Notes: generated by a model not told the origin, from the letters alone. Shown: positions 1 through 9,190, counted from the stretch's first letter. The stretch is 64,000 bases of DNA from Chlamydiota bacterium (GCA_013287335.1 JABDDZ010000001.1:3045-67044); one strand, 5' to 3'. Numbers and translations: made by a program.

Positions 1-3000
1 TACGCGAAGGCTTGCTGCGGAGATTCCAAGATAGTGCTGTAATTCTTTCAGGAGGTCCTGTTCAATCTCCTGCTTTGTCTCGGCCTGCACCTGGCTTGCC
101 ACCTCTGACAAGAGATCGACCTCCATTCCAAGGTTTTCCGTGCGGGTTTCTATGACTTTTGTCTGAAGAAAAGGGGACTTACTAGCTTTGGCAATGAGAT
201 TATCGATCTCAACCTCCATTCTCAAAGCAATTTCTGCAGGCGGGTTTCCTTTTCTAAAGGCAGCCATTTTACGGTTCTTATACTCTTTAAGTGCATCCGG
301 GGTATCAAGTTCATACTCTATTGCACCGAACTGATCGTAAGGATGGTCTCCTGATGAGGAGATGATCACTCCCCGAAAGGGGAGAGCTTTTGCTTTGAGA
401 TTCTCAAGCGTCAGCGGCTCTTTTAATAGATGCTCACACAAAAGCTCCTCTCTAAAGAGGCCATCGATTTTTTGCTTAATAGACCTGTTAAAATGTTGAC
501 TTTTACGGATGGCCTGGTTTTTTATAGAGGAGAGAAGGGAGCCTAAAAGGATCTTGATCTGCGGGTTTTTATGATCGATTTTAGCAATAGATTGTCGGAT
601 TACATAAGAGGGAACAATAAATTCGATGCGCTGATGCATAACATAATCACGGTGGCGCAAGATTGTCTGAAAGTAGCTTCGGCGTAGCATTGTTTCATCA
701 ATAGTCATCAGGCCAATAGCATCGGGTATAAGATAGATATTAATTCCTGTCGTATGGACTTCATCTGCAAAGACAAAGTAGTCCTTCTCTGTAAGGCCCG
801 TTTTTTGAATCTCATCCGCCCGTGTTCCTCCAATCATGATGGGGGTATCATTTTCAAGTTTTAAAAGAGCAAGAGAATCAGGCGTTTTTTCCCCTTTGCT
901 TGCATCGATTGTGAAAAATAGGACGGGAATTCTAAGGAAGTCTCGAATGGCTTTGGCAACTTCATAGTTGTTCTTATCCTTAAAAAAAGCTCCGGAATCT
1001 AGCAAGCTTCGGAGGCGGTCCGGTGTGGGATGTTGACCAATAACCTTTTCCAGGATCTCTTCGATGGATCCTGTTTTAACCTCATGGATAGTATCTTTCT
1101 TATCATCTTCGGCGGCCCGCTTAAGGGCAAGGTCAGCAATCAGCCCCTCAGCTCCAAGGTCCCTCTCAAAAGAGGAGGAGAGAGCGTCATCATAACAGTC
1201 AAGATTCCAAGGGGTTCCACCCATCGCGCGCTTAGTAGAGAGCATTTTAATAAGAGATTGTCCGGTTGCGGTGATTCTTTCAGGATAATAGACAACCAGG
1301 TTTTCAATAGTCTCTGCTTCCGCAAGAAGAATATTCTCAATATTGGCATTCAGAGTGGCTGTGGCCTCTTTAAGTTTGCCTTTTTTATCTATCTCATCGA
1401 GAGGGACGCCTGTTAACGCTTTAAACTCTTTGGCTTCTAAAATTTCATCAAAAGGCTTAGTGTCGCGTTTCATATAGTATTCAACTTGAGCGCGATAGTG
1501 AGCTGCAAGGGCCTCAAGCTGTTTTTGTTCAATGCCGAAGAGAAGAGCAGTTTGAAAGTGGTAGGCAACGGCCTCATAGTGGTAGCCAAATTTATTTGTT
1601 GAGGGGGTATCTACAGCAATGTAGGGGACAACTTCTCCCGGTTTTCCGAGGGATTTAGCTCTCCCAAATTGCCTTCCTCCCGTTTTTTCAAAGGTGACAG
1701 GAAGAATGGCCAGCATCATATGCTTTACAAGAGCAATCTCATGGGAAGCTTCGACCTTCGCCTTATCGGGGGAGTTTCTTAAACTTCTAACATATTTCAA
1801 AAATGCAAAGTCAGCAGCATCCTCTTTGGTAAGGGAGGCTTCCCATATCGGGAACTGCTCATCGTCCGGGCAATCGAGCATCTTCTGGCAAGTCGAGTTG
1901 ATGCAGCCGCTGATATAACGGTAGAAAGAGGGGTGATGCTCAGGAGTCTCTTTTAGCTCTAATACCGACAGATTTTGGGTAAAGTGCCAGGCGACGGCTT
2001 TGCAAACACTCTCTTTAAAATCTGCCCTTTGCAAAAGAGTCTGCTGATTTTTCTGAAGGCGGATCAATTTTTTGAGATTAATTCTCTCACTTGCGCTGAT
2101 GGGTGCATCTTTTTTTGCGAGAATAGAGAAAATTTCCCGAATAAGAGCAATACGATCGGGTAAGATATGCTCGGGATCACCCATAGGAAAGTTCATCTCC
2201 TGGAGGATATAGAGCACAAGGTCCACCTCATCGATAAGAGCATCACCATTTTTTCGAAATATCAGTAAAATCCTGCGGAGCCCATTGATCTTATTTAGCA
2301 TTTCTTGAGTTACTCTCGAGCTTGAGCAGGCCTTATAGACAAGGTCCAAGAATTCGAGTTCCAGACATTGCAATGTTTCCGGTTTGACAATTAAAAAATC
2401 TCCCCGCTTCATCGTGCGTTCTAGCCTTTTTTCGATCTCCAAAATCATTTCGAGGTTTAACTGGTTTCGATGCACATCAATCTCTTCGGTCTCTTGATTG
2501 TAGAGGGCTTTGAGGGGTATACGTAAGTTTTGTTTCACAGATGGATATTGAGAAGAGGGGGTAATAAAAATGGATAAGCGCCCCTCTCTTGCACTTTTTT
2601 TAAGAATGATGAGAGCGAGGACAGCTGTTTTTCCACCGCCCATAATTAGCTGAATGACAATATCCTGGAATTGTTTAGTTTGTGGATCAAGTGTTAAAAG
2701 TTTGGCTAGGAGTCCTCCCTGCTGCGTACGGATGGAGAGATCTTCATGAAATTCAAAGAATAGAAGGTCCGGTATCTGATGCGGTGTTGAAAGAGTGAGT
2801 TCAGATGCAAGTCTTTGAACGTAAGTTTCTCTTGTTAGGCTAGAGAGGCCTTGGATCTCTTCGATCTTATTGCAGAGATCTCTTCCTCTTGCCAGAGTGT
2901 TTTTATAAATACCGATTGTAAGATAGAGTCCAATGAGGTTGTATAGATAGACAATAGTTGCATCTTTCTCTTCCGGTAACGCTACAGCAAACGGCTCATT

Positions 3001-9190: not shown

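Follow-up and report, generated by a model that had tools for sequence, protein, structure and literature searches.

Two giant genes of a Chlamydiota genome as probable ancient paralogs in a superfamily of DUF3638-type proteins

Are the two giant genes that occupy the edges of a 64,000-nucleotide stretch of a Chlamydiota genome (GCA_013287335.1, JABDDZ010000001.1:3045-67044) related to each other, and if so, what kind of protein do they encode? The whole of this stretch is referred to below as the window. The genes lie at its opposite edges, 44 kb apart, and both point outward. An interpretation made from the sequence alone, here called the sequence-only reading, had described this layout, with which the open frames and the list of open reading frames (ORFs) agree, and had taken the two products for distant, collinear paralogs. 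Our answer is that they are ancient, highly diverged paralogs in one superfamily of approximately 3,000-6,000-residue soluble proteins of the DUF3638 type, a reading to which we assign a probability of about 85%. The homology between the left and the right giant is visible only through family profiles.

On the plus strand the frame of the right giant opens at 53229 and continues to the right edge of the window, and the complete protein of 5,681 amino acids (aa) is available from a 78-kb contig (P0001, 100% identical to the window ORF). The window shows 3,063 of the 3,495 codons of the left giant, the last 432 aa being encoded beyond the left edge. Together the two genes amount to ~27.5 kb of coding sequence, which is a large investment for a small, streamlined genome. 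Both looked like orphans. The precomputed Pfam field of P0001 is empty and a word-based search of 5.8 billion proteins returned no relative for it; likewise, the N-terminal 1,813-codon part of the left giant (hereafter the left N-part) has zero Pfam domains by hmmscan, and a word-based homolog search found no relative outside its own cluster. No internal repeats were found in either giant, and none of the other ORFs of the window resembles either of them.

A collinear plan shared by the two giants

The two proteins share a collinear plan that consists of an N-terminal core of some 600-700 aa (the N-core), a helical pre-ATPase block and a two-lobed ATPase resembling the superfamily 2 (SF2) helicases. 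The proposal that the giants are distant collinear paralogs is upheld by three profile-profile segments that follow one another in the same order, with E-values of 3.8e-13 for the N-core, 5.7e-5 for the pre-ATPase block and 1.6e-24 for the ATPase. This order is the same in both giants and in all family members that were examined. The tails and the N-terminal extensions are not conserved between the giants.

The ATPase carries the strongest signal. An exhaustive HMMER search with right-giant residues 3981-5180 collected 88 cluster representatives, nearly all of them 3,000-6,000 aa long. The right-family profile matches the left giant twice, at aa 2132-2567 with an E-value of 4.8e-21 and, in the second lobe, at aa 2792-2901 with 1.6e-4. 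In the other direction, the left-family hidden Markov model (HMM) matches many of the 88 proteins in the same region, with E-values from 1e-10 to 1e-24. When the two family profiles are aligned with hhalign, residues 2135-2916 of the left giant (L) pair with residues 3998-4869 of the right giant (R) over 711 columns, at a probability of 99.6.

The motifs of this region tell the same story. In an alignment of 16 proteins that includes both giants, the invariant columns are G4040, G4042, K4043, D4194, E4195, Q4796, R4800 and R4802, together with the G of a GxSGT motif and the G of an RGTDF-like motif. These columns read as the SF2 helicase motif set, i.e. motifs I, II and VI with III-like and V-like elements. 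The right-hand superfamily keeps both the GxSGT (motif III-like) and the RGTDF (motif V-like) sequence; in the place of motif V the left giant reads HTTGINI. Judged by its sequence signatures, the first lobe of the ATPase is a DUF3638 domain. Taken as a whole, the ATPase shows a Walker A of the form GxGK[ST], a DExD, an (R/T)G(T/I)(D/N) that resembles motif V and a QxxxRxR that resembles motif VI. The sequence-only reading had predicted that the right giant would reach an SF2-like ATPase just beyond the window. The full-length protein has its Walker A there (GLGKST, aa 4040-4045, ~1.36 kb past the window end), followed by a DExD element (LIGDED near aa 4194) and then by QxxxRxR.

Ahead of the ATPase, a phmmer comparison of the whole right protein with its 88 relatives delimits conserved blocks at R 100-400, 520-700, 950-1170, 2125-2720, 2730-3060 and 3520-3720. 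The block at R 2125-2720 is the strongest of the N-terminal ones, with E-values down to 1e-63. On the left side, the N-part alone matched nothing, and two of the right-family block profiles, b1 and b2, gave no significant match to it with hmmsearch. Orthologs of the left N-part were taken from contigs that carry left-family proteins. At one such locus (L002) P0004 is immediately preceded by two ORFs, of which one matches L 250-445 (1.7e-14) and the other L 624-1630 (5e-39), and at another (L001) a 371-aa fragment matches L 1539-1847 (8e-21). The left N-part profile comprises 5 sequences, and it matches the same site (L ~1545-1630) in more than 20 giants with E-values down to 8e-7.

Against the right-family N-core block profile (P0001 2080-3120, 101 sequences), hhalign pairs L 1068-1676 with R 2179-2893 over 576 columns, at a probability of 97.9 and with a score of 123. 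The controls remain far below this: with the left N-part alignment reversed the score is 17.9, with its columns shuffled (ten times) it is 14.6-18.4, and the other three right-family blocks score 14-26 against the left N-part profile. An independent profile comparison of the left N-core and its L002 ortholog with 11 giants, in which neither window protein was included, gives a probability of 98.05 and an E-value of 1.4e-13, and a plain MAFFT alignment produces the same N-core pairings. The pre-ATPase segment joins L 1916-2129 to R 3529-3724; in addition, the right-family block for this region matches the left giant at aa 1971-2015 with 1.4e-3 by hmmsearch.

An AlphaFold model of the right N-core, with a mean predicted local distance difference test (pLDDT) score of 72, suggests a helical bundle that leads into a beta-rich middle and then into TPR-like hairpins, the last of which would carry the AGFLYLA...G...A..YL motif. 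Foldseek found no meaningful match to this model in the PDB (best E 0.26), and neither Pfam nor NCBIfam has a model that covers the ~700-aa N-core. At right-giant aa ~1200-2100 (window ~56850-59550), ~900 residues form a lineage-specific insertion between conserved blocks, to which nothing corresponds in the 88 relatives.

How do the resemblances first seen by eye fit into this plan? The sequence-only reading rested on four pairs of peptides, and translation places all eight where it had put them, at left aa 994, 1099, 1560 and 1826 and at right (P0001) aa 2139, 2207, 2749 and 3528. All four right-hand peptides fall within conserved family blocks. Three of the four pairings coincide with the profile-profile alignment, one of them at low confidence. 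In block 2, LFFIRLSCRLSRFVDKEN pairs with LFLLEICGRIKLIARDQE residue for residue in hhalign, and again in MAFFT, with an invariant F. In block 3, both programs pair ALFLAYISISQRKYLKAKELIKEV with AAFLYIGLNCYLRGEHELAMVYLEKM, and these segments are the family signature, a helical-hairpin motif of the form SHAGFLYLA...G...A..YL. Block 1, whose right-hand peptide begins EYLLHYHKSLGG, is reproduced only in a low-stringency (mact 0.05) hhalign extension with low per-column confidence. Block 4 was paired wrongly: its right-hand peptide opens a genuine conserved block at R 3529-3724, and the true left partner, aa 1916-2129, begins ~90 residues downstream of aa 1826.

The superfamily and its likeness to known systems

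Pfam detects the family on the left side more readily than on the right. With curated cut-offs of 31 bits for DUF3638, 26 for DEAD, 22.5 for ResIII and 23.3 for OTU, the C-terminal part of the left giant passes DUF3638 (PF12340) at 77.3 bits (E 1.4e-21, aa 333-558 of that part), as does its annotated counterpart P0095 at 76.7 bits. The left giant stays below the threshold for DEAD (17.3 bits) and for ResIII (12.4 bits). Its relatives P0002-P0005, one of them from a Waddliaceae metagenome-assembled genome (MAG), are all DUF3638 proteins, and P0002, which is 45% identical to it, just passes ResIII at 22.8 bits. Among the relatives of the right giant, P0008 (35% identical) passes the DUF3638 cut-off at 40.1 bits, and the family is also passed or matched by P0044, by P0054 and by 7 of 12 others. 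The closest relatives of the right giant, P0010 and P0011, are below Pfam detection.

In a neighbour-joining tree of the N-lobe the left giant groups with P0003, P0004 and P0005, and the right giant belongs to a separate clade of 15. Two deep clades of this kind imply that the split between the giants predates the divergence of the sampled members within each clade, or else that the giants were acquired separately. The named members come from a Chlamydiales single-cell genome, a Waddliaceae MAG, a Verrucomicrobia-labelled MAG and three Chlamydiales/Chlamydiae MAGs. Every named member, and every locus that was examined, is from a Chlamydiales/Chlamydiae source or a Verrucomicrobia MAG. The three Chlamydiales/Chlamydiae MAGs, among which is a 2.4-Mb chromosome, carry intact ORFs of 3,886-4,304 aa. 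The sequence-only reading had also supposed that this genome encodes a family of such giants; for this genome the claim stands for these two genes only, and it is in other Chlamydiales/Chlamydiae MAGs that the family is large.

The ends of the family members appear to be exchangeable modules. For example, P0054 has a C-terminal OTU cysteine protease at aa 3452-3608 (34.4 bits), and one of the 12 relatives scanned carries a DnaJ/J domain. Neither window giant has a Pfam match to an OTU domain, and neither has a J domain or any catalytic domain besides the ATPase.

What known proteins do the giants resemble? The nearest are those of Pfam PF12340 (DUF3638) and its usual partner DUF3645, which are P-loop domains of very large uncharacterised proteins, mostly from eukaryotes such as fungi, microsporidia and protists. 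Pfam describes DUF3638 as a eukaryotic family. The literature reports it from fungi and microsporidia; the searchable literature holds no characterised relative, and DUF3638 appears there only in lists. The giants share with these proteins the Walker A/DExD N-lobe and the sheer size, and the left giant and several relatives of the right one pass the Pfam threshold. They differ in that the right giant, P0010 and P0011 fall below detection, that no DUF3645 match was obtained in the second lobe, that the N-core is unmodelled and that the hosts are bacterial MAGs. DUF3638 was thus already known as an uncharacterised Pfam family; what is new here is the unmodelled N-core and the chlamydial distribution.

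The giants also resemble the SF2 helicases and translocases (DEAD-box, RecQ, the helicase domain of reverse gyrase and the Res subunit of type III restriction systems) in the invariance of motifs I, II and VI. Unlike these, their lobes contain very large insertions, no nucleic-acid-binding accessory domain is recognisable, and the sequence and fold scores of the window proteins are below significance. Another set of large chlamydial proteins, the large cytotoxin or lymphostatin-like proteins, are ~3,200 aa long, sometimes occur as paralog clusters and are sometimes frameshifted. They have glycosyltransferase and cysteine-protease motifs, whereas searches of Pfam and NCBIfam gave no glycosyltransferase or cysteine-protease match in either window giant.

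Large multi-domain putative effectors bearing OTU domains have been described in Waddlia, Amoebophilus and Wolbachia (Zhang et al. 2012, PMC3482391). They share with the superfamily described here a giant size, solubility, an endosymbiont origin and helical-repeat scaffolds, and a C-terminal OTU occurs in some superfamily members (P0054). Unlike them, the window giants lack OTU, and neither the DUF3638/SF2 core nor the N-core is described in that paper. We also considered whether the viral-tegument-like deubiquitinases of Waddlia and Simkania are linked to the DUF3638 giants. This idea was dropped, as PMC9741609 mentions no such ATPase or DUF.

Competing explanations and the homopolymer break

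A number of results weigh against a common origin of the two giants and have to be set beside the evidence given above. When the fused left protein is compared with the right one by BLASTP, no match has an E-value below 1.1, the matches are non-collinear, and use of the full-length right protein brings no improvement. The Smith-Waterman score of 53 is below the mean of shuffled sequences (57.9, sd 6.2, n=100), 84 of the 100 shuffles reaching 53 or more. Each block pair found by eye scores 17-22, a value that 164-451 other windows of the right protein equal against the same left peptide; the resemblance seen by eye is not above chance. The sequence-only reading had itself put forward a significant pairwise alignment as the check on its claim, and the lack of one as its refutation, and no such alignment was obtained. 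Single profiles do little better. The left-family HMM (C-part) alone matches the right giant only at E 0.12-0.42, and in Pfam the window part of the right giant (aa 1-3584) has no match at E<=1 and its C-terminal ~1,700 aa, which include the ATPase, none at E<=10. The left N-part profile is shallow, with an effective number of sequences of about 1.5; the pre-ATPase alignment is marginal (probability 66); and the tails of the giants align only at E 0.089, which is not significant. The structural case for an SF2 fold is weak and only suggestive. The AlphaFold 2 model of the right N-lobe has a pLDDT of 70.9, and nearly all of its top 30 Foldseek matches are SF2 RecA1 domains (DDX21, reverse gyrase, eIF4A and RECQL5), with E-values of at least 0.1 and template modelling scores of ~0.2. 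Sequence searches of the PDB gave only weak P-loop matches.

If the giants were unrelated, and the blocks seen by eye were the short matches typical of two long helix-rich proteins, wholly null pairwise statistics (Smith-Waterman, BLASTP at E >=1 and block pairs alike) are what one would see. Such an account leaves no place for collinear profile evidence as strong as 4.8e-21, 1.6e-24, 3.8e-13 and 1.4e-13, nor for reversed and shuffled controls that stay at 15-18, and other right-family blocks at 14-26, against 123 for the true alignment. The profile searches, hhalign and the controls have already refuted it, and we give it next to no credence. It could also be that only the ATPase is shared, through the shuffling of a mobile DUF3638 cassette, and that the N-terminal likeness is the generic similarity of TPR-like or helical-repeat proteins. 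The ATPase is after all the strongest signal, the best-conserved motif of the N-core sits in TPR-like helical hairpins of the sort that attract spurious profile matches, and the left N-part profile has little depth. We nonetheless regard this as very improbable: the N-core alignment, at 480-576 columns, extends beyond the hairpins over the beta-rich middle with its invariant FG and W columns, the shuffled, reversed and other-block controls are flat, and N-core, pre-ATPase block and ATPase keep one order in both giants and in every member examined.

Another possibility is that the giants are xenologs, i.e. homologous subfamilies that were acquired separately, for example from other chlamydiae or from a eukaryotic host, and were not duplicated in this lineage. 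The two belong to different deep clades, they lie 44 kb apart among housekeeping genes, DUF3638 is reported from fungi and microsporidia, and inter-domain transfer to the symbionts of protists is common. On the other hand, the named relatives all come from Chlamydiales/Chlamydiae or Verrucomicrobia MAGs, both genes match the rest of the window in GC content (0.40-0.45), and no mobile-element signature was seen beside either gene. We consider separate acquisition unlikely and favour ancient paralogy. The homology of the two giants and their shared architecture, taken on their own, are in our view very likely indeed, as judged from the family profiles.

A further question is whether the left giant is a single intact gene, given that the window presents it in two frames. 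The left N-part is 100% identical to a database protein (P0006). Clustered with P0006 at 90% identity are P0095 (1,688 aa), which the annotation of the same contig gives as the downstream half, and P0094, an intact left giant of 3,495 aa from an independent Logan assembly. P0094 is identical to the two frames of the window at all 1,813 + 1,253 comparable residues, and at the junction it reads NATPPPEWTF, which is exactly the product of fusing the frames across a run of eight C. The run has nine C in the window and in the NCBI/JGI annotation and eight in the Logan assembly, and the proteins are otherwise identical. The left giant is one 3,495-codon gene, and the C9 run is a one-nucleotide homopolymer difference.

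Might the nine-C run be real all the same? In that case the left giant would be a decaying pseudogene, or a phase-variable or programmed-frameshift gene that toggles between a fused 3,495-aa form and a split form of 1,813 + 1,688 aa. On the plus strand the run is a G9, the longest G/C run of the 64-kb window, where 0.08 such runs are expected, and the second longest, a G8 at 7643-7650, is inside the left giant as well. The two assemblies differ in the length of this run alone, and a +1 slip of tRNA-Pro at CCC-UGA would yield the exact P0094 sequence. Phase variation through poly-G/C tracts is known for the pmp genes of Chlamydia. Against toggling or decay, homopolymer miscounts are the commonest assembly error, both halves of the gene are without any other lesion and are identical between the two assemblies, and no Shine-Dalgarno-like stimulator is present upstream of the tract. 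A prfB-like programmed +1 frameshift at CCC-UGA is retained only as a minor possibility for this last reason. Taken together, a functional or degenerative break seems improbable to us, and we keep to the single 3,495-codon gene. In two other organisms the left-type giant (loci L002 and L001) is likewise interrupted between its N-part and its ATPase part, roughly at the position of the C9 break, an observation that counts for a real break; P0005, the C8 allele and all right-type giants are continuous, which counts against it. Giant genes of this kind are routinely split or truncated in the annotation of MAGs.

Possible role and genomic setting

We hypothesize that ATP drives the conserved core as a translocase or remodelling motor, that a large helical scaffold carries this motor, and that the giants would act on host-cell targets after secretion. 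A host-directed effector role is a tentative proposal. It is suggested because all named members are from Chlamydiales/Chlamydiae or Verrucomicrobia MAGs, because neither giant has a hydrophobic export or membrane segment, because the core domain is otherwise reported in eukaryotes (fungi and microsporidia, in line with its Pfam description), because some relatives append eukaryote-directed modules (an OTU deubiquitinase, a J domain), and because large OTU-bearing putative effectors are described in Waddlia and other endosymbionts (PMC3482391). The hydropathy scan, to be precise, showed no strongly hydrophobic segment in either giant, so there is no candidate signal peptide or transmembrane helix; the N-terminus of the right giant is rich in Ser (MSGTSSASNENSK). 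A bolder version would see the giants as effector machines, driven by ATP and directed at the host, in which an N-core of ~700 aa not described before is combined with a DUF3638-type SF2 motor and exchangeable ends. It would add an ancient transfer link to the DUF3638 giants of fungi and protists, and a poly-C switch that would turn one copy on and off or move it between fused and split forms. We doubt that all of these elements hold together.

The main rival to an effector role is an intrabacterial one, in which the giants would serve, for example, as nucleic-acid helicases or in a conflict or defence system. The SF2 motifs are their sole recognisable catalytic features, the DEAD and ResIII matches are weak but present, with P0002 just over the ResIII cut-off (22.8 against 22.5), and giant SF2 proteins do occur in defence systems. 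What speaks against an intrabacterial role is that none of the 5,027 models of PADLOC-DB matched P0094, the window part of the right giant or the right ATPase region at E<=0.01, that no nuclease, methylase or defence genes adjoin the giants, whose neighbours are housekeeping genes, and that the OTU and J domains found in relatives are of a kind that targets eukaryotic machinery. An intrabacterial role seems rather unlikely to us, and we retain action on the host as a working proposal.

The results have some practical consequences. Two orphan hypothetical giants, one of which had no Pfam match and apparently no relatives, have become members of one definable superfamily. It counts at least 88 sequence clusters, whose representative proteins, one per cluster, are nearly all 3,000-6,000 aa long. 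The relationships of such giants are invisible to pairwise or single-profile searches. The residues expected to be catalytic, i.e. the Walker A Lys, the DExD and the motif VI Arg, are mapped and can be mutated. Furthermore, the eukaryotic link of DUF3638 and the OTU and J domains of the relatives offer a concrete hypothesis, that of a host-directed, ATP-driven effector. The coordinates of the features discussed are collected in Table 1.

Table 1. Positions of the two giants, their parts, the peptide blocks compared by eye and two further left-type loci (window coordinates unless another contig is named)
Feature	Position	Strand	Remarks
Left giant, C-terminal part	1..3783	-	Open frame, 1,261 aa, runs off left edge; aa ~1811-3063 of 3,495; annotated separately as P0095
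Left SF2-like ATPase, aa 2135-2916	442..2787	-	Walker A IMGGGKT 2620-2646; Walker B LIDEVD 2215-2241; motif VI QTILRHR 646-669
Left pre-ATPase helical block, aa 1916-2129	2803..3444	-	hhalign partner of right aa 3529-3724
Block 4, left (YWRWELPSYD...)	3646..3714	-	Not the partner of right block 4
C9 homopolymer in coding strand (G9 on plus strand)	3752..3760	-	Breaks left giant; reads acg ccc ccc ccc tga
Left giant, N-terminal 1,813 codons	3752..9190 (ORF 9190..3752)	-	ATG start; identical to P0006; TGA right after C9 run
Left N-core, aa 1068-1676	4163..5989	-	hhalign partner of right aa 2179-2893
Block 3, left (ALFLAYISISQRKYLKAKELIKEV; ALFLAYIS...)	4442..4513	-	Helical-hairpin motif
Block 2, left (LFFIRLSCRLSRFVDKEN)	5843..5896	-	hhalign, MAFFT
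Block 1, left (QLLYHYRN...)	6125..6211	-	Pairs only in low-confidence extension
Right giant	53247..64000	+	ATG at 53247, starts MSGTSS; first 3,584 of 5,681 codons in window (P0001)
Block 1, right (EYLLHYHKSLGG...; EYLLHYH)	59661..59747	+	Low confidence
Right N-core, aa 2179-2893	59781..61925	+	hhalign partner of left aa 1068-1676
Block 2, right (LFLLEICGRIKLIARDQE)	59865..59918	+	hhalign, MAFFT
Block 3, right (AAFLYIGLNCYLRGEHELAMVYLEKM; AAFLYIGL...)	61491..61568	+	Family consensus SHAGFLYLA
Right pre-ATPase block, start (aa 3529-3724)	63831..64000	+	Contains block 4 of the sequence-only reading; runs off window
Right ATPase, aa 3998-4869	1.2-3.9 kb beyond window	+	Profile-profile alignment
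L002	1364-5329 / 5332-9576 of its contig		Left-type giant, split; two frames overlap over ~120 nt of A-rich sequence
L001	1-1113 (-) / 1144-6741 of its contig		Left-type giant; N-core fragment on opposite strand at contig end

The genes between the giants are ordinary chromosomal or housekeeping genes, e.g. those for a methyltransferase, a type III polyketide synthase-like protein, adenylate kinase, transketolase, a DeoC aldolase and a methionine ABC transporter. Some of them deserve a remark of their own. The polyketide synthase-like protein (10631-11752, minus strand) is of the chalcone/stilbene-synthase type, lies a few genes from the left giant and beside the methyltransferase, and is unusual for a chlamydia-like genome. 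At 25900-28938 (minus strand) three tandem paralogous ORFs of 277, 286 and 289 aa, 53-67% identical in parts, occupy the stretch of lowest GC content in the window (0.376). Four ORFs of the window have the same length of 277 aa; this is a coincidence, as only one of them belongs to the trio. A protein of 1,184 aa (36848-40402, plus strand) has as its sole Pfam domain an SBP_bac_5 of the oligopeptide-binding type at aa 726-1096, preceded by an unexplained N-terminal extension of ~700 aa. Finally, a 277-aa ORF at 12765-13598 (minus strand) has, close to its N-terminus, a hydrophobic stretch that is long and bilobed (FSFGVAALTGVFATIGIALGIISFL...GSLIIFVISSAVFGYCIY). Such a stretch is a hallmark of chlamydial inclusion-membrane (Inc) proteins and fits with the chlamydial origin of the window.

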